Notes under the pieces: model-generated
What the model was told of the DNA's origin: nothing
Database searches by the model: none
The model's input: only the letters and a program-made list of their open reading frames with translations
Shown here: positions 13,943-57,200 of the stretch, one piece after another
Position numbering within the stretch: position 1 is the stretch's first letter
How the letters are laid out: each line of letters begins with the position of its first letter
IMG/VR virus record: IMGVR_UViG_3300045988_131126
Origin: a virus
Strand: one strand, 5' to 3'
Length of the DNA stretch: 64,000 nt
Made by a program: the position numbers and the translations under genes

Positions 13943-13953
13943 ATTACATAATT
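13943..13953 (-). promoter_or_regulatory. AATTATGTAAT motif upstream of 12645..13922
   Basis: Lies directly between the terminator at 13973..14002 and SD AAAGGGTGAG. Confidence 0.4.
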
Positions 13954-13972
13954 GTTTCAGAAGGCAAAAAAT

Positions 13973-14002
13973 AAAGGACTAGAGTCATCGCTCTAGTCCT
14001 TT
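13973..14002 (-). terminator. rho-independent terminator
   Basis: AAAGGACTAGAG / CTCTAGTCCTTT stem, then a T6 run on the minus strand. Confidence 0.75.
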
Positions 14003-14007
14003 TATAA

Positions 14008-14631
14008 TTATTTTGATTTGAGTATTGGAGAATCCAAAGGTAATGGTTTCTCTGTTGTAAAATCTGCAGGATAAAATTCTTGAGAAGTAATATATTGATT
14101 ATTCCTTCTATATTCATGTATACTGTATTTTAATTTTCTTCCGCTAATTTTATCATTTTCATTAAATTCTATACGAGTAATTTCCCTATACGTTTCATCT
14201 ATTAATTCAGTATATGGGAAAATTGTATAGTCTCCATCTGTAATATCAGGATCTTCTACCGCCGTGATTATCCAGTTATCAATACAGAATGATAATGCTT
14301 CATATGTAGATAATCCTCCTATTACACAAAATGTAGCTGCAGGATTTCCGATTATAATCTGTTTAATTTGATCAAGATTATAGTATGCTACATTTGGTAC
14401 TATATATGGACAATGTGTTTTATCATTAGTTAATACCAAATGAAATCTATTATCCAATGGAAAATATTCTTCATCAAATGTTTTTCTTCCTATAATCATA
14501 TTTGGATATAATGTAGTAATTGTTTTAAACCTGTGCATATCTGATGGTAAATTATACATAAGCTTACCATCTTTAGACATTTCGCCATTTGGTCCGATAC
14601 ATACTAATGCTATTACTGTCGCTCTTTCCAT
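14008..14631 (-). CDS. folA: dihydrofolate reductase with about 45 aa C-terminal extension
   Basis: LPSDMHRFKTIT...MIIGRKTFDE and VIGGLSTYE match the DHFR motifs (LPxDxxxFK, MGRKT(W/F)ES, VIGGxxxY). Confidence 0.8.
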   Translation of the reverse strand: MERATVIALVCIGPNGEMSKDGKLMYNLPSDMHRFKTITTLYPNMIIGRKTFDEEYFPLDNRFHLVLTNDKTHCPYIVPNVAYYNLDQIKQIIIGNPAATFCVIGGLSTYEALSFCIDNWIITAVEDPDITDGDYTIFPYTELIDETYREITRIEFNENDKISGRKLKYSIHEYRRNNQYITSQEFYPADFTTEKPLPLDSPILKSK

Positions 14632-14646
14632 AATTAATTTCTCCTT

Positions 14647-15387
14647 TTATTCTATATTATCTATGTCAAAAACTACTGTCGAATTTTTATATTTTTCTGG
14701 ATAATGAAGATAGCTCTTAGTATTCAGATAATTTATGCATTTATCTTTGTCTTCGGTTAAAAACCTATATACTCTAGAAAATACAATTAGATCTGGATCT
14801 GGTTGAGAGTTTGGAGTAGGGATTGCACCAAAAAACATTAGCTGATTAATTAATGTGTCGTTGTATGTAGTTGTGAGTAATTTTAATATATTAGTTGTAA
14901 AATCAGCGTAATAATCGTAGAAATCAAATCTTCTATCATCTGTCAGTACAGTATCATATGTTAATTTTCTGAGCATCATATCAGGTCTAGGAGTATAAAT
15001 ATTATTAATATTTGAAAAAGAAGATATATTAAGATATAATAATTCTCCTCTTCTTGTCTCAAATTCGAAAATTAAACTTTTATACATCTCTGGAACCCAA
15101 CGTATTCGATCTAATTGTTCTGTTTTTGGTGAGCTTAAGTAATAATCAAAATCATAGCGTCTGCGAACTTCGTCTAAATCAAAATAGTTCACACATTGTA
15201 TATATAATTCGAAAAGTTTATTTATATTTTCGAATTTAATAGCATTTAACGGGTTATTTGTTAAAACCGGAATAGGCTTACCATTTATCAATATTGTCTC
15301 ATTGCCAAAATATACAGGAAATACATCTGTATTGTCTTTATTTGCTTTTCCTTCAAAATACATTACATATTCTTTTTTATCGCTCAT
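14647..15387 (-). CDS. hypothetical protein (246 aa)
   Basis: ATG with SD AAAGGAGAA. Confidence 0.75.
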   Translation of the reverse strand: MSDKKEYVMYFEGKANKDNTDVFPVYFGNETILINGKPIPVLTNNPLNAIKFENINKLFELYIQCVNYFDLDEVRRRYDFDYYLSSPKTEQLDRIRWVPEMYKSLIFEFETRRGELLYLNISSFSNINNIYTPRPDMMLRKLTYDTVLTDDRRFDFYDYYADFTTNILKLLTTTYNDTLINQLMFFGAIPTPNSQPDPDLIVFSRVYRFLTEDKDKCINYLNTKSYLHYPEKYKNSTVVFDIDNIE

Positions 15388-15411
15388 ATTTATTTTCTCC
15401 TTTATAAAAGA

Positions 15412-15441
15412 AGAGTCTATAGATATATAACTATAGACTCT
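15412..15441 (-). terminator. hairpin terminator after the beta-prime N-fragment gene
   Basis: AGAGTCTATAG / CTATAGACTCT stem, then TCTTTTAT. Confidence 0.6.
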
Positions 15442-15447
15442 AAATTA

Positions 15448-16992
15448 TTAGTTACTTTTACTCATTTTCTGTAACTGCACTAATTCATCTGCAGTATATA
15501 ATTTTCTTCCTAACGATACAAATGTATTAGTATTAATTATGACATCTCGCTGATGATTCAACCTATTATCAAACGATCCATCATTCCTACTAATATACAT
15601 ACTCTTCGCAGGATTAAATACTCTATTTGCTGCACGATAAAATTCATCATTTATAATATACCAAATATTCAATGTATCACCGTCAAAGTCAGCACCCAAT
15701 GATACAAGGACACCGAGAGGTAATTCCATAGTATAGGAATATGTTATACCTACACAATACATCTGTAATATAGATCCATAGTTAATGGTTGGGTTTCTAT
15801 TAATAATAATAGGAATACCTTTCCCGCTCTTATGTTTCTTGATCATACTTTCAATGATTCTTACGATTAATGGATCTGTATTTATCTTTGCTGCATACCA
15901 TCTATTGTATGCATCCTGAGAAGATAAATTATATGATTTCTTAAGAATATTGATAATGGAAGCATGTAATAATTCCACTAAAGAATTATAGCTAAGTAAT
16001 ACTTGATCGTTTCTTAATTTCGGATTAGATACAATTACACATCTACCTGTAAAGTTATATCTACCAGCAAATAAAGATCTAATTGTACCTTTCTTACCTT
16101 CACAAATTGTAACGATATTATCATATAATTTCATGAATTCTACTTGAATATCGTATAATAATTGTGCTGTAGGTTTAATCTTCTTATTAGAATTAAACTT
16201 AGATTTGGCAAAGTTTAATTCAGATACTAACTTATTAATCTTAGTATAAATAGCATTAGATTCTTCAAAATAGAATGATTCTTTATCTTCATTGAATGGT
16301 CTAAGCATTGTACTGAATACAGGAATAGATTGAGTAAATACTTTATCTCTATTCTCCATAATATTCTTATAATACTCGATTTTATTTGGAAATTTTGCTT
16401 TATAATAATCCATAATCTCATCAAACCTATTATGGAATTCTACCATACCAATTCCATAGAATGGTTGATCTTCGTTCTCGATTATATGGATATGTCCATC
16501 TTCATCAATCTGAGCATCATATTTGATAATACTATCTAATTCTGTTTTACCTATTAAGAATTCAATAGATTTAAATAGATTACAATGTATAACAAAAAAA
16601 TCGTCAGATTGGATTACTATCCAACCTGTGTATCTGGGATTTGTTTCTACATTCTCTACTTTCTGTCCGCAGAATTTACATTTTAATCCAAGATTAATCT
16701 TGGATCTTGTCATTCCACATTTACATCTAAATGTATTCTGGAATTGATCTTGATCAGAAAGATTGTTTCCATATTTAGATGAAAATATAGAATGATCATC
16801 TTTAAGATCTTTTTTGATTCCATTTGTGGGAGATACAATAAATCCGTTACCAGATCTAATGTCTTGCACTCTCTCTTCGTCGAAATTGATTCTTTCCAAT
16901 TCCGTTGTGAATATCCAGTCTGGATTATGCGGATATGAATAAGTAAAATCCAATCCAACCCTTCCATCTGGAAGTTTCTTTAGACATTTCAT
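15448..16992 (-). CDS. phage multisubunit RNA polymerase, beta-prime N-terminal fragment (zinc ribbon to catalytic DFDGD)
   Basis: CKCG...CKFCG zinc motif, NRNPT, and GADFDGDTLNIW, which corresponds to the NADFDGD Mg-binding loop. Has its own SD AAAGGAG. Confidence 0.85.
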   Translation of the reverse strand: MKCLKKLPDGRVGLDFTYSYPHNPDWIFTTELERINFDEERVQDIRSGNGFIVSPTNGIKKDLKDDHSIFSSKYGNNLSDQDQFQNTFRCKCGMTRSKINLGLKCKFCGQKVENVETNPRYTGWIVIQSDDFFVIHCNLFKSIEFLIGKTELDSIIKYDAQIDEDGHIHIIENEDQPFYGIGMVEFHNRFDEIMDYYKAKFPNKIEYYKNIMENRDKVFTQSIPVFSTMLRPFNEDKESFYFEESNAIYTKINKLVSELNFAKSKFNSNKKIKPTAQLLYDIQVEFMKLYDNIVTICEGKKGTIRSLFAGRYNFTGRCVIVSNPKLRNDQVLLSYNSLVELLHASIINILKKSYNLSSQDAYNRWYAAKINTDPLIVRIIESMIKKHKSGKGIPIIINRNPTINYGSILQMYCVGITYSYTMELPLGVLVSLGADFDGDTLNIWYIINDEFYRAANRVFNPAKSMYISRNDGSFDNRLNHQRDVIINTNTFVSLGRKLYTADELVQLQKMSKSN

Positions 16993-17065
16993 AATTATCT
17001 AACTCCTTTCTGTATAACGCTATAATAATATATCGTTATTTAAGTGTTTCAGATATAGTAAAAAT

Positions 17066-17092: not shown

Positions 17093-17102
17093 GCATATTG
17101 CT

Positions 17103-17695: not shown

Positions 17696-18940
17696 TTATT
17701 TATCCTCCCATTCTCCGAATACTGTATCAAGTGGTATTTCAGTTAACTGCTCTGTGGAATCGTGGAAAGACTTCATTGATATATTTTTCAAAGTAGAAGG
17801 AATTTTAGATTCTGTTATACCAGCATTCTTTATACCTATTCTGTATAACATATTACCTGCACACTTATTACATATACCTGTCTTAGATTCACACATAGAA
17901 GCAAATCTGAACTTGACAACTTTATTTAAATAGTTATCTACATTTTCAGATGTCAATTCTACAAGCTTGCCTTTATCGACTATATAAGAATACATCCAAA
18001 ATGATACATTCTTTTTGGTTAAATGAACTTCTACTGTATCTTTTGTATGACAATCTGATCCAGGAGCATCTAACGTGACATGCTGTAGTGTATATACAAA
18101 TAACTTTTCCCAATAACCACCATCGGCAGTTTTTCTTGCTCGTTTAAATGGACCAGCAGCTAATGAGTTAGCTATCAATGAATATTCATCTGCTTTGATT
18201 CCGTCTATATAGTTGGATGTAGCAAATTTGTATTTCTGTTTAGCATAAGGATCAGGATCTTTAATAACTCCTTTTACAACGAATATATTCTTAAAGTTAT
18301 TACCTACAGATCCTCTAGCACCAGAATTATATACATCCATAGACGGATCGTCTCCCATATAATCTAATGCATACTGTAATAATTCCTTCTCGACTTTATT
18401 ACCTACAACTTCATCCCCTCTGTCTAATGCTTCTTTATTTTTTGCTAAAAGTTCTTCTTTCTTTTTCTTAATAGCATCACTACAAGTAAGCATTTTATCA
18501 GTATAATTAGGAGCAAGTATAGTTACATAAGGCATTATCTTTTGTGTCTTATTTAAATAATGCTTTAAATAATCAAGCTGTATTTTATCTTCCAATAAAG
18601 CATAAGATAATTTCTTATTAATATCTCCAAATAAATCATCATCTACAGACTTATTTATATAATGAAATAAATCGAATAATTCATTTTCAAAAAAGAATTT
18701 ATTATATATAAATAAACCTACTGTAGTAGTAAATGAATTTTTGTTTTTCTTTTGCGGATTTGGACCGTAAGAATTTGCAGGAATAGTGACTATATCATAC
18801 GGATTATATTTTCTTTTTCCATCAAATTCTCCAAAAGTCTCCATTATAAAAGATAGAGTTATATCTTCTTCTTTTAAATCAACCAGGGCTTTTATTTCAT
18901 CTGGATTAGTGATCATTTTTGATTTACGTTTACTAGCCAT
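17696..18940 (-). CDS. phage multisubunit RNA polymerase, beta-prime middle fragment (region F bridge helix to first half of trigger loop)
   Basis: NSGARGS; EYSLIANSLAAGPFKRARKTADGGYWEKL resembles the bridge helix ([22 protein letters not shown]); CNKCAG and MKSFHDS resemble MRTFHTGG. Confidence 0.8.
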   Translation of the reverse strand: MASKRKSKMITNPDEIKALVDLKEEDITLSFIMETFGEFDGKRKYNPYDIVTIPANSYGPNPQKKNKNSFTTTVGLFIYNKFFFENELFDLFHYINKSVDDDLFGDINKKLSYALLEDKIQLDYLKHYLNKTQKIMPYVTILAPNYTDKMLTCSDAIKKKKEELLAKNKEALDRGDEVVGNKVEKELLQYALDYMGDDPSMDVYNSGARGSVGNNFKNIFVVKGVIKDPDPYAKQKYKFATSNYIDGIKADEYSLIANSLAAGPFKRARKTADGGYWEKLFVYTLQHVTLDAPGSDCHTKDTVEVHLTKKNVSFWMYSYIVDKGKLVELTSENVDNYLNKVVKFRFASMCESKTGICNKCAGNMLYRIGIKNAGITESKIPSTLKNISMKSFHDSTEQLTEIPLDTVFGEWEDK

Positions 18941-19077
18941 ATAATTATTTCCTTTCTTATAATACTAGTCTTAGATTACAGTATTGTTGAACTTAGGAAG
19001 AATTATAGAAAAAATAAAAAATAAATTAATCAGGCTTAGCCTGGACCCCTAGCTAATGCTAGAGGTCTTGGTTCTTC

Positions 19078-19419: not shown

Positions 19420-19519
19420 AAGTTACCTCTTTCTACCTAGTTGATGAGACTAGGATTTATTAGATTATTATTGTTTATCACTATAATATTATATAATCAA
19501 AAAATAAAGATATTACAAA

Positions 19520-22341: not shown

Positions 22342-22389
22342 AAGTAATTCCTCCTTGTATTTTATTCACGATTATAATATACAAAAGAA

Positions 22390-22422: not shown

Positions 22423-23244
22423 TTAATAATAAATTTGATATGTAATATCAATACCTTTAGTTAAATCTCTTAAAGATTCATTACTAAAGTTTAATTTAGT
22501 TAATGGTTGGATATCTTGATATACTGTATATCCATCAATAGTTTTCGGATATGCTGTAAGTAAGGATATTGTATTAACTTCGCAATTATTAATACCTGTA
22601 GTAGCTTCATAATAATCTCTAAAATCATATTTATTTACAGACATAGTAAGCTCTACATATGTTCTAACTTTCTGTTTATTTTCGGATGTATATACATTTT
22701 CATCTACTGGAGTTCCATCCATATATATAGACTTACATATAGGATCAGCGTCGAACGCTTTAAAGAAGTAGGCAACTCTGTCTAATTCTTTTAATTCTTT
22801 TCTACCAAAATATTTCCCTCTTAATTCATCATTAAGATCATTATCAGAAATACAATATCTAAATGGAATTAAATGATCTTTATCAATCCATTTAGTATAG
22901 TCTACATCATAAATTTGAGAACCTTCTGGTCCACAACCATCCGTACCCATAGCGAATAATATTACTATTTCATTCAATTTTTCTTCCGGAGTTAATGCTA
23001 CAGTATTGTCAAGGTCTAATTCTTTATTGTAATTAGGTAGTTGTACAGGTAATTTAATACCAGGGAAATGCTTTTGTAATGTATAAAAAGATCCTGGTAA
23101 TATTACTTTGTTCCATTTTTCGAATATAACGGTATTAGTAATAGGATCTCTGGCTATAACTCGACCTTCATGTTGTGCGAAATGTACTTCATCTTCATTT
23201 ATTTGATAGCGAGGGATATCCTGAAACACTTTCTTTTTAATCAT
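22423..23244 (-). CDS. hypothetical protein (273 aa), monocistronic
   Basis: SD TGGAGG. Flanked by terminators on both sides. Confidence 0.75.
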   Translation of the reverse strand: MIKKKVFQDIPRYQINEDEVHFAQHEGRVIARDPITNTVIFEKWNKVILPGSFYTLQKHFPGIKLPVQLPNYNKELDLDNTVALTPEEKLNEIVILFAMGTDGCGPEGSQIYDVDYTKWIDKDHLIPFRYCISDNDLNDELRGKYFGRKELKELDRVAYFFKAFDADPICKSIYMDGTPVDENVYTSENKQKVRTYVELTMSVNKYDFRDYYEATTGINNCEVNTISLLTAYPKTIDGYTVYQDIQPLTKLNFSNESLRDLTKGIDITYQIYY

Positions 23245-23323
23245 TATATTAAACCTCCATTTATTCGTGTCTACAATTATAATTATGTTTCAGGCTATAA
23301 ATTCCTAGTATCGTAGAAAAAAT

Positions 23324-23363: not shown

Positions 23364-23960
23364 TTATTTTCTTTCAGGATGCATCATAGCATACTCATAA
23401 TTTCTATTATATAATCTCACATTATCATATACAGAATTTGTCAACGTATCTATCTGTTTCTTTATTGGAGAAAATTTATAGAGCTTATACGTATTACGGT
23501 TTTTCTCCTGATATTCTCCATATTTTATAATAATTAAATTTACAGCAGCATTGAAGTCTTCTAATAATTTATCGACTTCATATTTATAAACACCTTCAAG
23601 ATATTTTCTATCCGAATTATATAACGATAATCTTGTATTCATATAAACCAGATAAGAAAACTTTGAATTTGTCTCAATGGATAAGCTGTAGGATGTTGTT
23701 AAATCATCCTGTACAAATTCAACTCCAAATGTTTTATAAAAATTTGTTCTAAGAGTTGTTCTATAATTGATCTTTCTATTGATAGATCTTCTGTCATCGT
23801 CGGACAGATATTCTTCGTATTTATCAAGAAGCGGCTTAACTTTAGATAAGTCGTTATCGTTTACACTGTCAATAGTACAGATAATAGTGTCAACTACTTC
23901 TTTAATTTCTTTTTCTGTTGCTGGTACTTTTCCTTTTGATAAGATCTTCTGTTCACCCAT
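23364..23960 (-). CDS. hypothetical protein (198 aa)
   Basis: SD AAGGAGGAA. Overlaps the end of the upstream gene. Confidence 0.7.
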   Translation of the reverse strand: MGEQKILSKGKVPATEKEIKEVVDTIICTIDSVNDNDLSKVKPLLDKYEEYLSDDDRRSINRKINYRTTLRTNFYKTFGVEFVQDDLTTSYSLSIETNSKFSYLVYMNTRLSLYNSDRKYLEGVYKYEVDKLLEDFNAAVNLIIIKYGEYQEKNRNTYKLYKFSPIKKQIDTLTNSVYDNVRLYNRNYEYAMMHPERK

Positions 23961-24420
23961 TGTTTCTTTCCTCCTTAAATTTCCCTGTTTCGATGTAATA
24001 TTTTACAATTTCAAAATCTCTTTCGTTTAAGATATTTCCTAAACAAGTAGATTTATCAAATTGCATTCCTGCTAATCCTACTAATTTTTTAATGGAATGG
24101 CATACTGTTATCACCTGCCATGTAGGTAGCTTAGTAAAACAAATTTCTTCATAGTCATTTATTATATTCAATAAAGTGCTACTATGAATAGAAATTTGTT
24201 TGATGGTACACATATCTGTCTTAGTTTCGATATGTTTTGACAGTATCTTTAATGTAAAAGATATATGTGTCATCAAATTAATATAAGCTACACAATTTTC
24301 TTTATATAATGAATTTAATTCATTATAATACTTATTGTACAACTTATCACAGATCTCTTTTATTTTGTTTGTATCGTTTGTCCATGCTAGATCTGCAAGA
24401 AGCATTATGTCATTTGACAT
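23953..24420 (-). CDS. hypothetical protein (155 aa)
   Basis: SD AAAGGAGAA. Confidence 0.7.
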   Translation of the reverse strand: MSNDIMLLADLAWTNDTNKIKEICDKLYNKYYNELNSLYKENCVAYINLMTHISFTLKILSKHIETKTDMCTIKQISIHSSTLLNIINDYEEICFTKLPTWQVITVCHSIKKLVGLAGMQFDKSTCLGNILNERDFEIVKYYIETGKFKEERNNG

Positions 24421-24531
24421 TTATATTCTCCTTTCTTTTGTATTTTAATAGATATTCTTAATCATTCTGAATACTATCAATATTATAATATATTATTTTA
24501 ATAATTTATTATTACATTCTGAGCTATTAAG

Positions 24532-24561
24532 AACCCCATATATCTATAGATATATGGGGTT
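24532..24561 (-). terminator. hairpin, probable terminator
   Basis: AACCCCATATATCTA / TAGATATATGGGGTT palindrome. The T-run is better on the plus side than on the minus side. Confidence 0.5.
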
Positions 24562-24565
24562 TATT

Positions 24566-27149: not shown

Positions 27150-27160
27150 ATTACATAAAT
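27150..27160 (-). promoter_or_regulatory. ATTTATGTAAT motif upstream of 24566..27124
   Basis: Reverse complement of ATTACATAAAT. Lies between a terminator and the SD. Confidence 0.4.
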
Positions 27161-27178
27161 GTGCTAATCATATAAAAG

Positions 27179-28163: not shown

Positions 28164-28174
28164 TTTACAATAAT
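28164..28174 (-). promoter_or_regulatory. ATTATTGTAAA motif upstream of MDY paralog 1
   Basis: The motif abuts SD AAAGGAGAA. Confidence 0.35.
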
Positions 28175-28220
28175 CTATTAATTGATTGTGAAAAAATAAA
28201 ATTATTTAATTATTAAAAAT

Positions 28221-28553: not shown

Positions 28554-28677
28554 AATAATGTCCTCCTTTGTAATAATATTAATATAGCTATTCAACCATA
28601 TCAATATAATAATATACAATTATATATTTCTTATTGTACACTTTTAGGGAGGATAAAAGCATCATAACCCAATATGG

Positions 28678-29138: not shown

Positions 29139-29170
29139 ATTTACAAATAATTAATATATTAATATGTAAA
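29139..29170. promoter_or_regulatory. divergent pair of ATTATTTGTAAAT (minus) and ATTAATATGTAAA (plus) motifs
   Basis: Lies between divergent genes 28678..29115 and 29188..30033. Confidence 0.4.
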
Positions 29171-30033: not shown

Positions 30034-30105
30034 ATACTTAGTATCTATCTCAATTTATCATCTACAAATAATTAATATACAAAGTAAGTGAGGTTATAAA
30101 ATATT

Positions 30106-33000: not shown

Positions 33001-33011
33001 TTTACAATATA
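33001..33011 (-). promoter_or_regulatory. TATATTGTAAA motif upstream of MDY paralog 4
   Basis: Located about 10 nt before SD AAAGGAGAA (about 25 nt before ATG 32975). Confidence 0.35.
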
Positions 33012-33084
33012 TATTAATATTATGCAACATACAGGAAAATCAAAACACATTTCTATAAAGTATAATATAAAAGGAGATTAAAAG

Positions 33085-41546: not shown

Positions 41547-41598
41547 AATTGTTATCTAGTCCTTTCTTAGTTTAGTACTTATATAATATACAAGACAA

Positions 41599-43216: not shown

Positions 43217-43268
43217 AGTTTGTTCTCTCCTTTTTATATGTAATTTTATAAGAAAGTTGCCCAAGATA

Positions 43269-43976: not shown

Positions 43977-44026
43977 AAGCTAATTCTCCTTTTCTTAAAT
44001 TTCATATAAATAATATACCAACAAAC

Positions 44027-44510: not shown

Positions 44511-44548
44511 GTATTTATTCCTCCTATCAATATTAATTTATTGTTTAC

Positions 44549-45397: not shown

Positions 45398-45470
45398 GTT
45401 TATCACCTCTTATTATTTTACCTAATTGTATACTATATTAATAATAAAAGAAAAGGAGGAAGTTGTAATT

Positions 45471-46696: not shown

Positions 46697-46706
46697 TCAA
46701 AAATTT

Positions 46707-46746
46707 AGGGTAAATCTTATAAGATTTACCCTATTTTTATTTTTTC
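46707..46746 (+). terminator. rho-independent terminator
   Basis: AGGGTAAATC...GATTTACCCT stem, then ATTTTTATTTTTT. Confidence 0.8.
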
Positions 46747-46836
46747 TAAAAACTTTTTTCGTCCACAGCTATCCAAATTTGGTACAATAAAGCATTTTTG
46801 GAAATAGTTAGATAAACTAAACTTTTTTTCAATTAC

Positions 46837-46858
46837 AGATTATATTTGTAATATAATT
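46837..46858. repeat. left arm of a 22-bp perfect inverted repeat
   Basis: AGATTATATTTGTAATATAATT. Its partner is at 47109..47130. Confidence 0.85.
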
Positions 46859-46952
46859 CATATTACCATTAAAAAAAGTAAAATAAAGATTTAATAGAAA
46901 TCCTAAAAGTTTAAGTTAAATACTAAGATAGATAAATGAAAAATACTAACGG

Positions 46953-46962
46953 TTTATGTAAT
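46953..46962 (+). promoter_or_regulatory. TTTATGTAAT motif inside the 46.75-47.24 kb non-coding region
   Basis: Same 10-mer core as at 27150 and 57187. Located about 280 nt upstream of ATG 47243. Confidence 0.35.
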
Positions 46963-47020
46963 CTACATAGATAAATACTATATTGAAGTAAGTTCTTGTA
47001 GAATTACTGCCTCAGGCAGA

Positions 47021-47034
47021 TAGAAACTTGTAGA
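47021..47034 (+). promoter_or_regulatory. 14-nt element perfectly complementary to the SD-to-AUG spacer of gene 47243
   Basis: TAGAAACTTGTAGA (47021..47034) is the exact reverse complement of TCTACAAGTTTCTA (47229..47242), which directly abuts ATG 47243. Confidence 0.45.
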
Positions 47035-47108
47035 ATCTTATAGCCAGTTAAATAAGAATCGCTATTAACTTGCTTAGTAGAGAATGGTTTAAAGTGAAAT
47101 AAAAGTAA

Positions 47109-47130
47109 AATTATATTACAAATATAATCT
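47109..47130. repeat. right arm of a 22-bp perfect inverted repeat
   Basis: AATTATATTACAAATATAATCT is the exact reverse complement of 46837..46858. Confidence 0.85.
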
Positions 47131-47242
47131 CTGTCATCACTTTTTATACTTAAAAACCTAGATATAGTAATAATTTTAGAATATATCTATTACAAGAAGA
47201 TAATTATACTATTATTTTCTAGAGGAGGTCTACAAGTTTCTA

Positions 47243-48241
47243 ATGTTCAATTTAGTCAAAAAAATAAAAGAATTATACAGAAAAACAGAAGTAAGAAATA
47301 GAAAGAAAGATACAGATGAAGAAGTAGCTAAAGTTATTAAAATAGAAGATTATGGAGATTACAATATTCAAATTGTATATGTAAATGACTATATTAATAA
47401 ATCTTTTTCAGAAGAAGATCTAAATAAAATAGAACCTTATATAGTATTTTCTATTATTTTTGATATAGATAAAGAAGATATTACCAAGGACTTCTACAAC
47501 AACTTACTGCCATTTTTAGATACAATTCCATCGGCAAAATATACTAGTTCATATGATAGTGAGAATAGAAAATTATATTCTTATATAGGTCTATATGGAT
47601 TTAGTTTAGATTTTATATTCGATATGTATTATTCTAAAGGAAAGAATATATCATTTATATTATCTAATATGATTCAATTGATATACGAAGAATTAAATAA
47701 TACTAGGTTTAGTCAATTTATTCCTATGAAATTTATAAATCAATCAGATGAATTACCAGATTATAAAGGTACTTTTAGAACTACTTCTACAAGTACTTAC
47801 AATATACTTGGTATTGATAAAATTCCAAACGTAAATAATATATTTAGCACTAATCAATTAGTATATATGGCTAATATTTATATATGTATGGATTATACAA
47901 AAAATCAAGATATTGGATATCCAGAAGGGTTCGGTTATACATACAGTTTATTTAAATTCTTACGATCTATATATAAATCTGCAGATATATATACTAGAAA
48001 TAAAGATATTATATTTCAGATTGAAAATGATGCATATTTTACCATAAATGGTATAAATTTACGCAAGTATGCACAACAATGTAAATTTATAAAATATAAC
48101 ATCTATAGTGATGAGTCTGAATTATACAATGACGTGGATGAAGTATTAGAAGAAAATGAAACTATGGGTAAGGATTCAAATTCTACGCTTCAACCTATCG
48201 ATTTTGATAATGATGACTTTGATGATATAGATGAATATTAA
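47243..48241 (+). CDS. hypothetical protein (332 aa) with acidic C-terminal tail ending in an aromatic residue
   Basis: SD GAGGAGG 14 nt upstream. C-terminus ...PIDFDNDDFDDIDEY. Confidence 0.75.
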   Translation: MFNLVKKIKELYRKTEVRNRKKDTDEEVAKVIKIEDYGDYNIQIVYVNDYINKSFSEEDLNKIEPYIVFSIIFDIDKEDITKDFYNNLLPFLDTIPSAKYTSSYDSENRKLYSYIGLYGFSLDFIFDMYYSKGKNISFILSNMIQLIYEELNNTRFSQFIPMKFINQSDELPDYKGTFRTTSTSTYNILGIDKIPNVNNIFSTNQLVYMANIYICMDYTKNQDIGYPEGFGYTYSLFKFLRSIYKSADIYTRNKDIIFQIENDAYFTINGINLRKYAQQCKFIKYNIYSDESELYNDVDEVLEENETMGKDSNSTLQPIDFDNDDFDDIDEY

Positions 48242-48799: not shown

Positions 48800-51700
48800 T
48801 TATTCTATTTTATAAGGTATATCTAATATATCTTTACAAGATCTAGTAAGTTCTACTAATAACTTATTAAGACTACCTACTTTGATTACCGATGTAACCA
48901 TACGTGCATTGATGCCTCCTAATGATACTAATGAATCCATCTTTTCATTTTTTCTGAAATCTGAATATGGTTCATCTCCTTTAGGGAAGATATCTTTTAC
49001 TACACCTTTTACAGCAGAATAATATATAAGTTTATCACCTACAGACATCTTATCGTTATATTTAATATTTATTTCTATATATAATCCATCTACTTTCTTT
49101 AATTTACCTTGATTATCAAGTTTATCTGTAGATTCTACATCGGAAGTATCAATACCATACTTCTTCATAATAGATTTCTGTTTATTGATATTTCCTTCGT
49201 ATTTATTCCATAATTTTAATAATGTATCAGACAATTCAGATTTTTCACAAGTACGTTTTATTACAATAGATTGTATTGTACCGGTTACTTCTGCTTTGAT
49301 ATTAGTTCTACCTAATTCACTTATCATATCACTTTCATCATCTGATAAGTTTCTTAATATCTGGTCTACATATTCATCGTCAGAAGCCATCTGTAAAGTA
49401 AACAGAGTGTCGCCTTCTTTTACAGCTTGTCTTTCTTTTACCATATTATATATATTAGCATCTTTAGGAACTGATTTAGTTACCTGTAATATTACTTCTG
49501 ATGCCATATCTTCTGATAACTTTTGAGATATAATAGCACTATCTTCATATCCTTCATCTGTATTTAATAAAGCTACTTTACAGAAAGTACCTATATTATA
49601 TTCTATATTATCAGTAGTACCAGTTTTATTAGAATAAGCTAAAGGGTCATATGCTAAGATATCATTTTTACCAAACTTATCCCCAACTTTTAACTTACTA
49701 TCTAATTGAATACCAATATAGAAACCATTACTGGAGTTCTTTTCTGCTTTATCTTTAAAGGATATAAAATCATGAGTACCGTTATCGTATTCTACGACCA
49801 TATAATCATTAGTTTTTTCTATTACTTTGCCTTTATCTTTGGATTTAAAAGAGAAAGTATTAGAAGTCAAATATGGTAAAGCTTCATCTGCTCCTGTTGT
49901 TACTAATAATGGATCGCTCTTAGCACATCTCATACCATGTTTAGATGTCTGAATAAAGTTCATAGCACTACGCATAGGGTCATCACCTGTGGTACCAAAA
50001 GGAGTCAAAGCTTCTGTCATACATAAAGTTTTAATAGGATTTAATTCTTTTTCTTTGCCATCATCATTTGAAAGTATTCTACCGTATGCATCTACATTAG
50101 CATCTATAGTAGCCTGACGTACAATACCTACATTACCAGCAAAACCTGTTGACAAAGATAAAGTACCAAACATTGAATCATCATATGAACGTTTATCAAG
50201 ACCATAAGATCTATCACTATTCATACCAGAATGACCTTTAGGAGTTACAGCAGAATATGATTCATATTCTTGAAGAGGATTAATTACAGATAAATCACTA
50301 GAAGTATTTAACTTCATGAATTCATCTATAACTGCTGATTGTTTTAAACTAAATCCTTTATTTCTTCCATGTTTAATAGAAGTATTATATCCAGCATATT
50401 CTCTTGCTAATACTGCGTATAATAAGTCTACTATCTGTTGTTTACGTTTTAATTGCCTTGTATTAGCAATATTAGTATGCTTTACATATTTATTATCAGC
50501 TAATAATTGATTAGCGTATAATAATACTGATACATAGTCTGTTGGTAACTTATAAGATACTAATTGCTGATAGGTATTATTATCAATCATCAAATCATAA
50601 AAGTTATCAAGACCATCGGCTATAATTCTACCGCCAAATAGATCTAAGAAAGCTAAATAAGTAGTACGTTTATTCATATCAGAAATAGATACTTCTGATA
50701 TAGGGCAATCTCTCAATCCATTTAATAATAATGAAGAATCATATGTAACTTCGAAAGATAAATATCCATCTTTAAATCTAATACTATCCCAGTTATAAGG
50801 TAAATCTTTTGGTTTTTCTTCACTGAGATCATATTTAATATTTGCTTTCTTTAATACTACGTCTAATCCTTCGTGATAAGCACATAAAACTATTAAAGGT
50901 ATCTTTTGTGACATTATACTAGCTCTAGAATACGTATATTTGGTAGCTTTAGAAGCTTTAACAAAGTCAGAATAAAAAGTTGTACCTTCCATTTGGGTTG
51001 ATATTAATGAAGCTAAATAATCGCTGAAAATACCATTTTTAGAAGTATAATATTCTACTTTTTTATTTTTTGTATCATAAGCAAAAGGTACTCCTTTTGA
51101 ATCATCTACATTATATTTCTTTCTAATTTCATCTTGGTTAAAATAGAAAGTATAATTCTTAGTAACTATTTTACTATATACACTAGATAAATCTATATAG
51201 TCGACAGGTAATTCATATTTACTACAAACCCTAGCATTCATACCTGTATATACTTTTAAATTAGGATATTCTTTTTTATTTAAAACTTTCATGAGTTTAC
51301 CAGAAGATATAATACTCTTACCAGCAGCAGAGCCAAATCGTCTTATGAAAATCTTGTTATAATTAGATACAATCTGTACTGTATCTTCGTCAGTTTTGAT
51401 AATAGGCATCAAGAATAACTGGTTAGGCAATTCTTTTCTATTACCTCTTAATTTAATATATTTACCATCTATAAATTTAGGTATATCAAGTTTAACAGTA
51501 AATCTTTCTCCTCTTCCAGATTCGTATTTAACTTCATAAGTTTCTACAGCATCCTCAGAAGTAGAAGTATCTGTGACTGATATATCTCTAATATATAATG
51601 GATTAGATAATTTAGACAATGATTCAAAAGTACGTACAATATCATCATCCATATTATATGAATTATCTATATTAGGAAAAGTTAAATTCTCCCATTCAGG

Positions 51701-53674
51701 ATTAACACTATCTACTTTAAGATCAATAGGTTCTATTTTCTTATTCTGTTGCTCTATAGGTAAAGGTTTTCCTTCATCTAAGATATCTTTAATTGATTTA
51801 CCTTTAATCTCTTTAGATAATAAATCATTTTGCAATTTAAGATTTCTATTAGCCCTAGCAGCTGTAACTACTGGCTGTCCTTCATCTGGATTATCGTTTA
51901 AGAAATCCAGAATATCTTTAACCTCGTCATCATCTAACTTATCTAAAGCTATATCTGTATCGCTACTATTTTTAGCAGCCTTATCTATTTTATCTACTAA
52001 TTCTTTTTTCTTTTCTGCTTTCTGTACAGCAGCTTTACTTGTAGAAGCAGGTTTAATTTCTTCTTTGTCTAAAGAATCAATTTTAACACCCTGAGTTATT
52101 TCTACTTTATTTATAATATTATCTTTAATAACCTTTGGAGAATCTTGTACGTCTTCAGGTTCTTCTGGTATAATAGTATTTTCATCTATAAGCATTTTAA
52201 TTAATCTGATATAAGAAGCTTTTAATTTTTTATAGTCTACTTTAGCAAAATTAATTGTAAAGTATCCTTTATTAGATAAAAATACGAATGTATTATCACC
52301 ATATTTCTTCAAAGAATCTATATCAGACATTAATCTTTTATAGATTACAGATATAGGATTTATAGTATCTTGAATCATCCATAATCTTCCGCTACTAATA
52401 GCATTCCAATCGTCTAATGGTATAGTTATAGTTTTATTAGCATATCCTGCATCGTTTATTTCTTTATCCATAATTAATCTATCCATTAATCTGGAATAAA
52501 TATTATAGCCTCTAAGATTTTTAAATGTACTATTTTTAAGATAAGTTTCATTATACCAATAAGTATCAAAAAACAGATTCAAATTTTTATATTTAGAAAT
52601 ATCATGATAAGTATATTTGATAGTAGGATTATCGGTTTTTACTTTATCATATATAGCTTGCATATCTTTTCTTGTTTTAATACGATCTTTATAAAGCATT
52701 TTCTTTAGTATTGAATCTTGAGCATCTTCTAAAAGAACGTAATCATTTTCTGTTAAAGGTAAAAGATCGTATAATTTAGAATAGTAATTTTCTTCAATTG
52801 GTTTATCAAATACTGAATAATTAGTAACGTTTTCATATAAACGATCTATATTAAAATAATCTAATACGTTATTTATAGTATCATTTACTGGTAGATATAA
52901 AGAAAATAATTTTACTAATTCTTTGGTATTATTATTCTTTAGCACTACGTCTTTATAAAATACTCTTCTATTACGCTCCATGTATGATACTATACATGGA
53001 CACAATGTTTTTAAATTTTTAGCAAAAGGCCAAATCCCTTTTTTAGAATAATAATCATATAAACCGCTTTCTACTAAAGCAGTCCCATATAATAAAGACT
53101 TATTTATTGATGAATTAGCTCTATTGATCAAATAAACCATAAGAGTAAATTTGACATAAGTTTCATAATCTACAAATAAATCTCTATTAAAAGTATACCT
53201 AGATTCTAAATACAGTACCGTTGTAGTTGGTTCTCTTAAATATCCTCTTCTGTATACTTCTACGTTTATAGTTTCAGGGAATTCTATGCCGTTAGGTAGT
53301 CCTTTTTGGATACTCGATAAATAATCTCCTGTTATTACACTTTCTACTTCTTTTATATCTGATTCTAATCCGTTAAATACAAAATTAGTTTTTGGACTAT
53401 CGAATAATTTTTCATAATCCTCTAATATAGACACTGATTCTTCTACAGGTTCTTCTTTTGTCCCATCTATGTAATACATTACTGGTCTTCTCATAAAATA
53501 AGAATAATAATATCTATATCCAAGAAATTCGTTATTCATTATAGATTTAGAAGACTCGTAACTCGGGGCCAATAATATAGCTACAGAACCTTTCTTTCTA
53601 TCTTTGTCGCTGATAGGCATTAAAGCTTTTTTACGTTTGATCATTAAATTAGGAATTTCGTCTATGAAATACAT
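48800..53674 (-). CDS. phage multisubunit RNA polymerase beta-like subunit (1624 aa) with large non-homologous N-terminal extension
   Basis: IPKFIDGKYIKLRGNRKELPNQLF (aa 731-754) resembles IPLMTxxGTFIINGxERVIVSQL. NPLQEYESYSAVTPKGHSGMN...GNVGIV resembles NPLSE..RRxSALGPGGL...PNIGLI. DDPMRSAMNFIQTSKH resembles DDANRALMGANMQRQA. EGYEDSAIISQK resembles GYNFEDSILxSE. GDKLIYYSAVKGVV...SLGGINARM resembles GDKxAGRHGNKGVxS...NPLGVPSRMN. Confidence 0.85.
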   Translation of the reverse strand: MYFIDEIPNLMIKRKKALMPISDKDRKKGSVAILLAPSYESSKSIMNNEFLGYRYYYSYFMRRPVMYYIDGTKEEPVEESVSILEDYEKLFDSPKTNFVFNGLESDIKEVESVITGDYLSSIQKGLPNGIEFPETINVEVYRRGYLREPTTTVLYLESRYTFNRDLFVDYETYVKFTLMVYLINRANSSINKSLLYGTALVESGLYDYYSKKGIWPFAKNLKTLCPCIVSYMERNRRVFYKDVVLKNNNTKELVKLFSLYLPVNDTINNVLDYFNIDRLYENVTNYSVFDKPIEENYYSKLYDLLPLTENDYVLLEDAQDSILKKMLYKDRIKTRKDMQAIYDKVKTDNPTIKYTYHDISKYKNLNLFFDTYWYNETYLKNSTFKNLRGYNIYSRLMDRLIMDKEINDAGYANKTITIPLDDWNAISSGRLWMIQDTINPISVIYKRLMSDIDSLKKYGDNTFVFLSNKGYFTINFAKVDYKKLKASYIRLIKMLIDENTIIPEEPEDVQDSPKVIKDNIINKVEITQGVKIDSLDKEEIKPASTSKAAVQKAEKKKELVDKIDKAAKNSSDTDIALDKLDDDEVKDILDFLNDNPDEGQPVVTAARANRNLKLQNDLLSKEIKGKSIKDILDEGKPLPIEQQNKKIEPIDLKVDSVNPEWENLTFPNIDNSYNMDDDIVRTFESLSKLSNPLYIRDISVTDTSTSEDAVETYEVKYESGRGERFTVKLDIPKFIDGKYIKLRGNRKELPNQLFLMPIIKTDEDTVQIVSNYNKIFIRRFGSAAGKSIISSGKLMKVLNKKEYPNLKVYTGMNARVCSKYELPVDYIDLSSVYSKIVTKNYTFYFNQDEIRKKYNVDDSKGVPFAYDTKNKKVEYYTSKNGIFSDYLASLISTQMEGTTFYSDFVKASKATKYTYSRASIMSQKIPLIVLCAYHEGLDVVLKKANIKYDLSEEKPKDLPYNWDSIRFKDGYLSFEVTYDSSLLLNGLRDCPISEVSISDMNKRTTYLAFLDLFGGRIIADGLDNFYDLMIDNNTYQQLVSYKLPTDYVSVLLYANQLLADNKYVKHTNIANTRQLKRKQQIVDLLYAVLAREYAGYNTSIKHGRNKGFSLKQSAVIDEFMKLNTSSDLSVINPLQEYESYSAVTPKGHSGMNSDRSYGLDKRSYDDSMFGTLSLSTGFAGNVGIVRQATIDANVDAYGRILSNDDGKEKELNPIKTLCMTEALTPFGTTGDDPMRSAMNFIQTSKHGMRCAKSDPLLVTTGADEALPYLTSNTFSFKSKDKGKVIEKTNDYMVVEYDNGTHDFISFKDKAEKNSSNGFYIGIQLDSKLKVGDKFGKNDILAYDPLAYSNKTGTTDNIEYNIGTFCKVALLNTDEGYEDSAIISQKLSEDMASEVILQVTKSVPKDANIYNMVKERQAVKEGDTLFTLQMASDDEYVDQILRNLSDDESDMISELGRTNIKAEVTGTIQSIVIKRTCEKSELSDTLLKLWNKYEGNINKQKSIMKKYGIDTSDVESTDKLDNQGKLKKVDGLYIEINIKYNDKMSVGDKLIYYSAVKGVVKDIFPKGDEPYSDFRKNEKMDSLVSLGGINARMVTSVIKVGSLNKLLVELTRSCKDILDIPYKIE

Positions 53675-53741
53675 TTTAGAAATCCTCCTTTCAATATTAC
53701 TATTCTGTTTAAAATATCAAATTTGGCAGAATTAGAGATAT

Positions 53742-53775
53742 AAATTTACATTATCTGCCACATTAATGTAAATTT
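53742..53775. promoter_or_regulatory. divergent pair of ATAATGTAAATTT / ATTAATGTAAATTT motifs (candidate promoters for the beta-like gene and the 53797 operon)
   Basis: AAATTTACATTA-N10-TAATGTAAATTT inverted repeat in the divergent intergenic region. Confidence 0.45.
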
Positions 53776-53796
53776 TAAAAGAAAAGAGGAGAAATT

Positions 53797-54297
53797 ATGC
53801 AAGTATTAAATAATCATAGAATCAAAATAAACTGCAGAATAGAATATATTATTCAATATGCAAAAGATTATAACCCTAACTCTGATTTAAAAGTCGTTAA
53901 TTCGTCTCTTGATAAAATCAAGACAATATACGATGATGTAAATACTTTTGAAACGAATATAATTCCAGATCTTAAAGATAGAGTAAGGGCTGATCTTTTA
54001 CCAAAAAGATATAAATCCATGCAGATGTTCTTAGAGAATGGAGTTCCGGTATTATTATTTTCAGGAGATAATATGATAATAGATACTACTGGTGCATCTC
54101 CTATTTTATATATGAATAAAACAATACGTGTTAATATTTATGAAAAGAGCTTAAAAGAATATGCCAGTACTAATATAAATAAACCTGAATGGGAATCTGG
54201 CGTACCAGTAGATGAGATAAGAAAATTATCATTAGACGATATATTCAATTTATATCATCAAACAATGCATACAGGTGTGAAAATAATAATTGATTAA
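53797..54297 (+). CDS. hypothetical protein (166 aa)
   Basis: SD AAGAGGAGAA. Confidence 0.7.
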   Translation: MQVLNNHRIKINCRIEYIIQYAKDYNPNSDLKVVNSSLDKIKTIYDDVNTFETNIIPDLKDRVRADLLPKRYKSMQMFLENGVPVLLFSGDNMIIDTTGASPILYMNKTIRVNIYEKSLKEYASTNINKPEWESGVPVDEIRKLSLDDIFNLYHQTMHTGVKIIID

Positions 54298-54312
54298 AGA
54301 AAGGGCGATATT

Positions 54313-55374: not shown

Positions 55375-55402
55375 GTAGAATGAAGAAAGGTAACTATAAG
55401 TT

Positions 55403-55543
55403 ATGAGTAAGAAACAGCATATAAGCAGAGAAGATTTCTTATATATAATGAAATCTATGGATGCTAAGCAAATGCAAAAGTATATAGAATCAAAAGGAAA
55501 AGATCCCAAGTTATTTAATCCAATAATGCATTGCGTTAAATAA
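55403..55543 (+). CDS. possible small protein (46 aa, MSKKQHISREDFLYIMKSMDAK...)
   Basis: Own reading. ATG 55403 with weak SD AGAAAGG. Fills a gap otherwise covered only by an antisense shadow ORF. Confidence 0.35.
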   Translation: MSKKQHISREDFLYIMKSMDAKQMQKYIESKGKDPKLFNPIMHCVK

Positions 55544-55624
55544 CACAAATATGATAAATTAGGAATAGTAAACTATTACATACCTAACTATTAGGAAATA
55601 GAAAAATATTAGGAGGACTTAATT

Positions 55625-56134
55625 ATGTCTAAAGTTGAAGAGTTAGTAAATGGTATCAAAGAGAATCTTAAACAGACTTCATCATCTCAGAAAGATGAAG
55701 TAGCTGTAATGCAGGCTATGCTTAATAGCCCTGATTATGAAGTAGGTGTTTACAGCAAAGACGGTCAAATTGGAACTTATAATCCATGCAAAGACTACAG
55801 AGGAATGCTTACAAACGTATTATCAACAGCAGGTGGAATTACTAAAACAGAAGCAACTACTAAAGTAGAATCTTATCAGGCTTCTAAATCTGATGCAGAA
55901 ACAATGGTAAATATCTCTAAAGAGTATATGAATACCTATCTTGATACTGGAAGAAAGATCAAACTTGGAGGAAGAGAATCTTCTGACTTCGGTATGTCTA
56001 TCAAGAGAGTAGAAGCATCAACAAGATCTTTCCCAATCAAGAACGATGATGGAACTACATCATTCGGCAAAAAAGAAGTTCCTGCTCACAATAGTATTAG
56101 AGTATATGGATCTTGCCCATCTTGGGTTAAATAA
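55625..56134 (+). CDS. hypothetical protein (169 aa), probably abundant
   Basis: Strong SD TAGGAGGA. GC-richer, biased codons. Strong terminator directly downstream. Lies upstream of the tape-measure-like gene. Confidence 0.75.
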   Translation: MSKVEELVNGIKENLKQTSSSQKDEVAVMQAMLNSPDYEVGVYSKDGQIGTYNPCKDYRGMLTNVLSTAGGITKTEATTKVESYQASKSDAETMVNISKEYMNTYLDTGRKIKLGGRESSDFGMSIKRVEASTRSFPIKNDDGTTSFGKKEVPAHNSIRVYGSCPSWVK

Positions 56135-56173
56135 TAAAATACAATTAAATATGTTTTAAACTTGCTGATAATG

Positions 56174-56203
56174 AATCTCACTACTAATATTAGTAGTGAG
56201 ATT
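56174..56203 (+). terminator. rho-independent terminator
   Basis: AATCTCACTACTA / TAGTAGTGAGATT stem, then TTTATTTTT. Confidence 0.8.
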
Positions 56204-56227
56204 TTTATTTTTAAGGAGGATATATTT

Positions 56228-57130
56228 ATGATTATAATACCATTTAAATCAAAGAACCCAGAAAAATCTTACAAGCATTATTCGTATGCAGAATATTATT
56301 CTGTAAGTATAAAATCCGAAACCGATGTATTTTCAAAGGATTTTACATATGATTTTATTAGAGAATATGATACTTTTTACGATAGTCAATTTAACAAAGA
56401 AACAGTGCAACGGTATTTTGCCGGCGATCCTGATACAGACAAAGTGCAATTAGTTTCAGATAATGGATATACATATACTATTGATTTGAAAAATGATATA
56501 TGTATTAATAAAGGAAATGCTTTATATTTCATACCGAAAGGTAAAATGTTTAAGAAATTTTATTCTATTAATCAAATAAGAAATTTCGTGGACATTATTG
56601 TTAAGATTAAAGATTATGATCTATTGAAGAAATATTCTAAATTGATAGATGAAGATTTTAGCTCTTTAGATGCAGAAGATGTATATAATTTAGTGAATAT
56701 AGAAAAAGAAATAAACAAAACCAAAGAGGAATACAATAAATACGACTATTTATTATTCAGAAACTATTTCGAAGGTGAAAACCTATTAGATACTTATCTA
56801 ATGACAGAAATAAAAAGAGACATATGTGATATGTATAAAATCGATCAAAATTCTAATATTTACTATAGTTCTACTCTTAAACCAGCATATTGCAAAATAT
56901 CACAAATTTATGAGAATAGGTACGAGTATTTGAATGGATCAACTTTGGAAATACTTCCATATATAAGATCTAATATGATTTCTCTTGGATTTATGAAAAA
57001 AGAAGAGCAATTAGATGAGGTTATTCTTAAATTAAAAGAAAATAAATCAGATGAATTTAATGATATAATGGATATGGTTTATTTAAAAGCTAATCATGAT
57101 ATGAATAATAGTTATCAAGGTGGATTTTAA
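56228..57130 (+). CDS. hypothetical protein (300 aa)
   Basis: ATG 56228 (MIIIPFKSK...) with SD AAGGAGGA. The longer track ORF would include the terminator hairpin. Confidence 0.7.
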   Translation: MIIIPFKSKNPEKSYKHYSYAEYYSVSIKSETDVFSKDFTYDFIREYDTFYDSQFNKETVQRYFAGDPDTDKVQLVSDNGYTYTIDLKNDICINKGNALYFIPKGKMFKKFYSINQIRNFVDIIVKIKDYDLLKKYSKLIDEDFSSLDAEDVYNLVNIEKEINKTKEEYNKYDYLLFRNYFEGENLLDTYLMTEIKRDICDMYKIDQNSNIYYSSTLKPAYCKISQIYENRYEYLNGSTLEILPYIRSNMISLGFMKKEEQLDEVILKLKENKSDEFNDIMDMVYLKANHDMNNSYQGGF

Positions 57131-57135
57131 AATTG

Positions 57136-57167
57136 TACCCGTAATACCTTAATTGGTATTACGGGTA
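57136..57167 (+). terminator. rho-independent terminator
   Basis: TACCCGTAATACC / GGTATTACGGGTA stem, then TCTTTTG. Confidence 0.7.
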
Positions 57168-57184
57168 TCTTTTGCCTCCTAAAA

Positions 57185-57200
57185 CATTTATGTAAATATT
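57185..57200 (+). promoter_or_regulatory. CATTTATGTAAATATT motif upstream of the tape-measure-like gene
   Basis: Located 4 nt before SD TAGGAGG, just after the terminator at 57136..57167. Confidence 0.4.

Follow-up and report, generated by a model that had tools for sequence, protein, structure and literature searches.

In Bacillus phage AR9 (Takahashivirus PBS1), late promoters follow the consensus 5'-AACA-(6N)-T-A/G(+1) and are recognized by the non-virion RNA polymerase (RNAP) together with the sigma-like subunit gp226 (PMC5312081, PMC5449584, PMC9209446). Those of phiKZ, 5'-T(-3)ATG(+1), are used by a non-virion RNAP with gp68, and in this case all four bases are needed and there is no upstream box (PMC7598289). 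For jumbo phages that encode an RNAP, late promoters have been described in a review as not predictable from sequence (PMC7598289), and a MEME search for them in the Staphylococcus relatives of AR9 failed (bioRxiv 10.1101/2020.12.14.422802). Here we analyzed a 64,000-nt stretch of viral DNA (IMG/VR record IMGVR_UViG_3300045988_131126; hereafter the window), for which a preliminary description had noted a recurrent word, ATT(A/T)(A/T)TGTAA(A/T), close upstream of Shine-Dalgarno (SD) sites and had proposed it as a phage-specific promoter. We find it highly probable that the late genes of this phage are preceded by an AR9-type promoter, i.e., AACA, a spacer of exactly 6 nt, and TA, read by the non-virion RNAP. 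The evidence consists of enrichment, orientation, exact spacing, the class of the downstream genes, conservation before orthologous genes, and the match to mapped AR9 start sites, while the polymerase that would read the box and the exact start site are assigned by analogy with AR9. Overall, the promoter class, AR9-type late, is already known, and the window phage adds to it a lineage-specific extension at the start site.

The source of the window is a jumbo phage, uncultivated and AT-rich (27-28% G+C, high coding density), with two multisubunit RNAPs, which is distant kin of Bacillus phage AR9/PBS1 and of the Staphylococcus jumbo phages. A megablast search with 10 kb of the window found no nucleotide match in the phage collection. 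At the protein level, the nearest cultured phages, at ~32% identity, are Staphylococcus S6 and MarsHill, Bacillus PBS1/AR9/Goe21, and Listeria LPJP1, and the proteins of the window phage are about 25-37% identical to those of AR9, whose orthologues were assigned by tblastn of window genes against the AR9 genome. The core of a non-virion multisubunit RNAP is encoded, with the N-terminal part of beta' inside the window (15448-16992, minus strand; 514 aa; PF00623; orthologue of AR9 g270, E = 8e-19) and the remaining subunits outside it. In addition to the window, we used partial contigs of the same phage (24-54% complete), including the 148-kb IMG/VR contig G002, the longest of several near-identical contigs; two relatives at 40-45% protein identity, G004 (236 kb; completeness, 95%) and G005 (313 kb; terminal repeats present); and a further sample of 55 related loci totaling 685 kb. 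Expected counts were obtained from dinucleotide shuffles of intergenic DNA.

The hypothesis was fixed beforehand as the published AR9 late consensus (PMC5312081). In the window, the strict box AACANNNNNNTAA occurs nine times, with eight copies in intergenic DNA and a single one in the 60 kb of coding DNA (density ratio, 128-fold; p = 1e-9), against 1.6 +/- 1.3 copies expected in the shuffled intergenic DNA of the window. All eight intergenic copies are oriented toward a start codon 23-45 nt downstream. The same directional enrichment of AACA-N6-TAA is present in the longer contig and in the relatives, with 20 copies toward a gene and 2 away in G002 (5.1 expected from shuffles), 71 and 3 in G004 (13.2 expected), and 35 and 0 in G005 (14.5 expected). 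The z values of the enrichment over shuffles range from 4.9 to 16.7. The 55 further loci hold 61 sense and 11 antisense copies. The spacing is equally sharp. At N6, the sense/antisense counts are 8/0, 20/2, 71/3, and 35/0 in the window, G002, G004, and G005, whereas the other spacings from N2 to N11 give at most 2, 5, 21, and 14 sense matches, respectively, i.e., background.

Expectation maximization (EM) run de novo on upstream regions initially recovered only the SD site; with the SD cut away for later runs, it recovered "ACA-N6-TAAT" and "tTGTATATTATA" without any prior. As a positive control, the same pipeline applied to AR9 found 76 copies of AACA-N6-TA toward genes and 12 away, in agreement with the 94 experimentally mapped consensus late promoters of that phage. 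The fourth box position may tolerate T, as AACT-N6-TAA is also directional in G002 (12 toward genes, 1 away; e.g., G002 125698 and 134626, and window 43246-43258). At the corresponding position -8, AR9 shows no U/T preference, and this position points into solvent.

The genes that follow the strict boxes are virion structural genes, a tape-measure-like gene, both virion-RNAP genes, and genes 12645-13922 and 44151-44510. Orthologues of these genes in G004 and G005 (~40% protein identity) have an ACA-N6-TAA box at a similar distance, with the six spacer bases varying freely. Moreover, late 5' ends have been mapped at the box A/G for seven AR9 orthologues, g189, g204, g242, g259, g260, g264, and g281, with leaders of 24-61 nt, and the transcripts of these genes rise from 0-2 fragments per kilobase per million (FPKM) at 5 min to 300-1300 at 40 min (PMC5312081, Tables S3 and S4). 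These seven orthologues with mapped late start sites are the strongest support short of transcripts from this phage itself. In the window, their counterparts are the virion RNAP beta gene (48800-53674, minus; a 1624-aa beta-like protein; g189), the tape-measure-like gene (57220 to beyond 64000, plus; g204), gene 44549-45397 (minus; g242 homologue), a virion protein gene (22423-23244, minus; g259), a virion structural protein gene (24566-27124, minus; g260), the gene for the C-terminal part of virion RNAP beta' (17696-18940, minus; 414 aa; g264), and a virion structural protein gene (4030-4971, plus; g281 homologue).

The probable late promoter consists of AACA at -11 to -8, an exact 6-nt spacer, and T(-1)A(+1), to which the clade adds A(+2) and the window phage, in about half of its sites, G(-2). 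By analogy with AR9, the non-virion RNAP would read the box with a gp226-like, sigma-like subunit that recognizes the template strand of the AACA element, and transcription would begin with the first A of TAA, leaving 22-45 nt to the start codon. The likeness to AR9 extends over the AACA box, the exact 6-nt spacer, TA at the start site, the strict orientation, and the 22-45-nt leader found here, as well as the position of boxes before virion and virion-RNAP genes, the homologue of the non-virion RNAP beta' N-terminal part, and the presence of gp226 homologues in the clade. The sites of the two systems also differ. A at +2 is found in 71-87% of clade sites compared with 31% in AR9; G at -2 is found in 52% of window-phage sites compared with 1 of 77 in AR9; and the first box position tolerates C or T in the window phage, unlike the AR9 consensus.

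Among the individual sites, the box AACAATTATGTAA (13944..13956, minus) places the putative +1 A at 13945, with 23 nt separating it from the ATG of gene 12645-13922, whose orthologues have AACATATACATAA (G004) and GACATTTGATTAA (G005); a terminator hairpin (13973-14002) lies upstream of the box. The virion-RNAP beta gene is preceded at 24 nt by AACAGAATAGTAA (53697..53709, minus), and the late transcription start site (TSS) of its AR9 orthologue g189 was mapped at aacaaatagatA, with a 26-nt untranslated region (UTR) (PMC5312081). The virion-RNAP beta' C-part gene has the box AACAATACTGTAA (18976..18988, minus) 37 nt upstream, the virion protein gene 22423-23244 has AACATAATTATAA (23277..23289, minus) at 34 nt, and the tape-measure-like gene has AACATTTATGTAA (57183..57195, plus) at 26 nt. 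On the plus strand, AACATACCATTAA (3987..3999) precedes the virion structural gene 4030-4971 by 32 nt; on the minus strand, gene 44151-44510 has AACAATAAATTAA (44533..44545) 24 nt upstream. The non-virion RNAP beta' N-part gene is preceded by the late box AACACTTAAATAA (17036..17048, minus), directly followed by a box of a second, early-type class described below, TATATTATTAT (17022-17032, minus); thus, this gene has dual promoters.

Other assigned boxes are variants. A CACA form, CACATTTATGTAA (27151..27163, minus), lies 28 nt before the virion structural gene 24566-27124, and the late TSS of AR9 g260 was mapped at ctgaacataaagatA with a 24-nt UTR (PMC5312081). Another CACA form, CACATTAATGTAA (53759..53771, plus), lies 27 nt before gene 53797-54297, and a TACA form, TACAAGAAGATAA (47191..47203, plus), 41 nt before gene 47243-48241. 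Gene 44549-45397 has the variant TACAATTAGGTAA 22 nt upstream (45418..45430, minus), which overlaps back to back with an early-like box, TATACTATATT (45429-45439, plus), of gene 45471.

Two features of the flanking sequence can be recorded beside these sites. The late cassettes 13957-13990 and 57150-57182 are near-identical over ~30 nt, reading TTTTGCCT(T/C)CT(G/A)AAACA(A/T)TTATGTAA, and "CTGAAACA" recurs at 17036 and 23277, with AR9 g260 and g281 also reading ctgaaca; the late box may thus be extended upstream by a weak additional element. The region 46697-47242 (546 nt) contains no open reading frame (ORF) of at least 60 aa, has a terminator hairpin at its start, and ends in the TACA late-type box and an early-like box before gene 47243. 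Neither tRNA genes nor Rfam families were found in the window, this gap included.

How, then, does the word ATT(A/T)(A/T)TGTAA(A/T) relate to these boxes? All nine strings listed for it in the preliminary description are present, at the coordinates and on the strands given. The word is enriched locally, with 4 copies in intergenic DNA of the window against 0.3 expected (and 5 in coding sequence), yet no signal holds across the genome: G002 has 3 intergenic copies against 0.8 expected, with nothing new in its other 84 kb, the word does not occur between genes of G004, in G005 3 copies compare with 1.9 expected, and the 55 further loci hold 2 sense and 2 antisense copies. The full word is absent upstream of the orthologous genes in the relatives. 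The TGTAA core shows no enrichment either, with a ratio of intergenic to coding density of 1.0-1.4. The nine strings themselves are of several kinds. Four (13943..13953 and 27150..27160, minus; 53762..53775 and 57185..57200, plus) lie inside [A/C]ACA-N6-TAA boxes, namely the late boxes 13944..13956, 27151..27163, 53759..53771, and 57183..57195 described above, which happen to have (T/A)TG at -4 to -2. Two (29139..29151, minus, and 29158..29170, plus) are complements of boxes on the opposite strand, their TGTAAA being the reverse complement of TTTACA in TACA-N6-TA boxes. The remaining three have no box in register; the 28164..28174 string (minus) is in a presumed 5' leader, 3' of a CACA box, and those at 33001..33011 and 53742..53754 (both minus) lack one altogether. 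The promoter of the virion-RNAP beta gene is likely the 53697..53709 box rather than the copy at 53742.

Duplication accounts for part of the recurrence. The strings at 28164, 29139, 29158, and 33001 all fall within a cluster of paralogues at 27-33 kb, where three of them precede members with an MDY(I/L)xE start (27215-28150, minus; 29188-30033, 30106-31044, and 33085-33981, plus), and the promoter/leader regions are duplicated with the genes; therefore, these upstream regions are not independent instances of a motif. The string at 29139 precedes gene 28678-29115, which gave no MDY(I/L)xE family match. Read directly from the sequence, the 29142..29168 region is a quasi-palindrome of two overlapping divergent TACA boxes, TACAAATAATTAA (29142-29154, plus) for gene 29188 and TACATATTAATAT (29156-29168, minus) for gene 28678-29115. 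The CACA variant CACAATCAATTAA (28178..28190, minus) lies 29 nt before paralogue 27215-28150, with the 28164..28174 string downstream of it; TACAAATAATTAA occurs again at 30063..30075 (plus) before paralogue 30106-31044, whose upstream region duplicates that of gene 29188; and CACATTTCTATAA (33046..33058, plus), before paralogue 33085-33981, overlaps an AACA-N6-TAT two bases upstream. The back-to-back copies that had been noted in divergent regions are in part mirror images of the ACA box on the opposite strand. At 53742..53775, two arms of 12 bp, AAATTTACATTA / TAATGTAAATTT, form a perfect inverted repeat around a 10-nt spacer. The CACA late box of gene 53797 is overlapped by the right arm, and the left arm is what had been listed as the minus-strand copy at 53742. 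The repeat could serve a dimeric regulator as operator, or it could form a hairpin in the leader.

The MDY(I/L)xE paralogues found no family match in PHROGs, Pfam, or NCBIfam. A fifth member (31849-32965, minus) is split by a frameshift, with an N-terminal "MDYILEADIYEG..." of ~46 codons followed by a stop and a 314-aa remainder in another frame; it could be a pseudogene, an assembly error, or a case of programmed slippage.

These results bear directly on the possibility that the word itself is the recognition element, as a phiKZ-like late promoter centered on TATG with transcription starting at the G. Such a promoter would resemble the present one in that a short start-site element is read by a multisubunit non-virion RNAP of the phage, and it would draw on the local enrichment of the word, on the three boxes that hold TATG at -5 to -2, and on the significant preference of the window phage for G at -2 (13 of 25 sites, p = 4e-6). 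Even so, TATG is neither enriched in intergenic DNA (ratio 0.9, as flat as the TGTAA core) nor general among the boxes, TG occupies -3/-2 in only 4 of 25, and the promoters of orthologous genes retain AACA and TAA but not TG. The restriction of the word to one region of the genome, the four strings inside the paralogue cluster, and the two that are complements of opposite-strand boxes count against it as well. We therefore consider this explanation very unlikely, and the phiKZ-type TATG promoter was rejected as a candidate because of its flat ratio, the rarity of TG, and the requirement for an informative upstream AACA element at -11 to -8. What the preliminary description had recorded is instead the start-site half (-7 to +3) of a subset of late promoters, mixed with other sequences, and the informative part lies in AACA at -11 to -8 and T(-1)A(+1)A(+2) at an exact 6-nt spacing. 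One portion of the word is real. Together with G at -2, A at +2 is preferred (80% of window-phage sites, and 71-87% in the relatives), and "GTAA" at the start site genuinely extends the AR9 consensus in this lineage, with T at -3 falling outside the extension. The TGTAA word thus arises locally from G at -2 and A at +2 together with duplicated leaders and is no recognition element.

The preliminary description had also treated all of its copies as one motif, and in doing so it merged the late AACA-N6-TAA boxes with early-type TATATTAT boxes. This second class, (T/G)GTATATTAT(A/T)AT, covers four of the six copies that had been listed as weaker, those before 19419, 43976, 12598, and 45471. A fifth, before 18940, is a strict AACA late box, and nothing convincing was found before 55625. 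In the 250-nt gap upstream of the latter gene, there is a 47-codon ORF with an SD (MSKKQHISREDFLYIMKSMDAKQMQKYIESKGKDPKLFNPIMHCVK; 55403-55546, plus) that falls below the length cut-off of the gene calls. The early-type class is also enriched and directional, TATATTATWAT occurring 6 times toward genes and 0 times away in the window (8/0 in G002). Its boxes precede the RNase H/ThyA genes, the non-virion RNAP beta' N-part gene (alongside the late box), and small genes of unknown function; searches of PHROGs, Pfam, and NCBIfam found no function for most genes with an early-type box. The box TATATTATTTA, in the context TTGGTATATTATTTATATG (44007..44017, minus), lies before the RNase H gene 43269-43976 and the downstream thymidylate synthase gene, and the AR9 RNase H gene g241 is likewise annotated with an early promoter (AR9 genome annotation). 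Another, TATATTATAAT (12630..12640, minus), lies before gene 12350-12598, and further early-type boxes, all on the minus strand, are found at 19483-19493, 3933-3943, 22371-22381, 24482-24492, 28606-28616, and 41580-41590. The class shares the TATATTAT core with the early promoters of AR9 (AAATATATATTAT-(6N)-G; PMC5312081), MarsHill (TATATTAT), and phiKZ, which are read by the virion RNAP, whereas its upstream flank is TTG or TGG rather than AAATA. Presumably, it is read by the virion RNAP.

Since TATATTATAAT contains TATAAT and the late boxes contain TGTAAT or TATAAT-like strings, which resemble a -10 hexamer, we considered whether the host polymerase might use these sites as sigma-A promoters lacking a -35 element. 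This is highly improbable. Bipartite sigma-70-like sites (-35 TTGACA and -10 TATAAT, 16-18 nt apart) number 135 against 160 +/- 12 in shuffles, with none at the boxes, and dependence on AACA at exactly 6 nt in a fixed orientation is not a sigma-A feature. Furthermore, a -10 hexamer at the position of the box would place the start inside or beside the SD. The phage also has virion and non-virion polymerases of its own, and neither AR9 nor phiKZ relies on the host polymerase for transcription (PMC7598289). The earlier view that these are phage-specific promoters outside the sigma-A type is thus upheld, and the boxes are most likely read by the encoded multisubunit RNAP, as had been proposed.

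The placement of the motif between a terminator or a divergent gene and the SD was also borne out, and terminator-like hairpins number 24 in the window compared with 3.6 in shuffles. The short distance of 5-25 nt to the SD, together with the TGTAAA that abuts the SD in the paralogue cluster (28164, 29158), might suggest an element acting in RNA, either a processing site or a translational operator in the leaders of read-through transcripts, and conserved motifs whose role is unknown have been reported in AR9 leaders (PMC5312081). However, most boxes lie directly after strong terminator hairpins, so read-through RNA should be scarce, and the conserved AACA part would fall upstream of the transcript. 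In addition, the orthologous positions in AR9 are listed as primary 5' ends, and AR9 promoters work in vitro. Accordingly, there is little room for a leader element, and we give this explanation a very low probability.

Several points weigh against an AR9-type late promoter in this phage. The start site and the late timing are ones that we infer from AR9. About half of the assigned boxes in the window have C or T at the first position or T at the fourth; these match less well, and some may be chance matches. Neither tblastn nor a hidden Markov model (HMM) of the family detected a gp226 homologue in the window or in the phage's partial contigs, which are 24-54% complete; for the window phage, we thus infer the subunit. 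Finally, the phage encodes a thymidylate synthase and a dUTPase-family protein, so the chemistry of recognition would not be identical to that of AR9. The thymidylate synthase, ThyA (42329-43291, minus), is complete, scores 147.5 bits against TIGR03284 (cut-off 108.35), and has the catalytic motifs, with PCAF, SRRII, QRSQD, NNWNV, and GDCHIY present, and the dUTPase-family gene is located at G002:C1:145500-145844. In the relatives, G005 has ThyA and a dUTPase-family gene and G004 has ThyX, while ThyA, ThyX, and the dUTPase-family gene are all absent from the AR9 genome. Deoxyuridine phages lack thymidylate synthase, and given these two gene products, the DNA of the window phage probably holds ordinary thymine, unlike the uracil DNA of AR9.

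The difference matters because AR9 gp226 reads 3'-UUGU-5' in the template strand, and thymine at -11 or -10 abolishes recognition (PMC9209446), while the window phage probably presents TTGT in place of UUGU, and its recognition pocket would then have to be different. In AR9, V206 blocks the 5-methyl group at -10, and the engineered V206G substitution relieves the block so that thymine is accepted at this position (PMC9209446). tblastn with AR9 gp226 found no match in the window or in the relatives, and only the family HMM detected homologues, in G004 (E = 5e-23) and G005 (E = 3e-27). The sole match of the G005 protein in the PDB was AR9 gp226 itself (7S01_A, E = 1e-5), and relatives of gp226 were found in 66 further loci on viral contigs, for 68 loci in all. 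At the position equivalent to V206, G005 has Leu and G004 has Pro, and among 51 homologues the residue is G in 9, V in 8, K in 6, I in 5, T in 5, and others in the rest, while the neighboring W208 is retained in the clade homologues. Reading thymine tolerance from this residue was rejected, as the conserved valine is lost and the position is too variable for prediction. The variable position and the retained tryptophan fit a differently built pocket and are no proof of thymine tolerance.

It is worth recording that the gp226-like gene of both relatives consists of two ORFs 340-570 nt apart (23648-24613 and 25185-25754 in G004; 80309-81322 and 79362-79970 in G005), whereas a single ORF of 500-550 aa encodes most of the 68 homologues on viral contigs. 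An intron or an inserted element could explain the split, or there could truly be two genes.

That a clade of gut jumbo phages uses a template-read AACA-N6-TA promoter on thymine DNA, through a naturally thymine-tolerant gp226-like sigma factor, is a proposal to which we give an even chance. The thymidylate synthase and dUTPase-family genes raise the question of how a gp226-type sigma reads the same box on a thymine template. If the proposal is true, the dependence on uracil would be a derived speciality of the PBS1 group, not a property of the promoter class. Within this clade, the AR9 consensus is sharp enough, with its 128-fold enrichment in the window and its exact spacing and orientation, for late transcription units to be annotated directly, and temporal gene classes thereby become assignable in hundreds of uncultivated gut jumbo phages.

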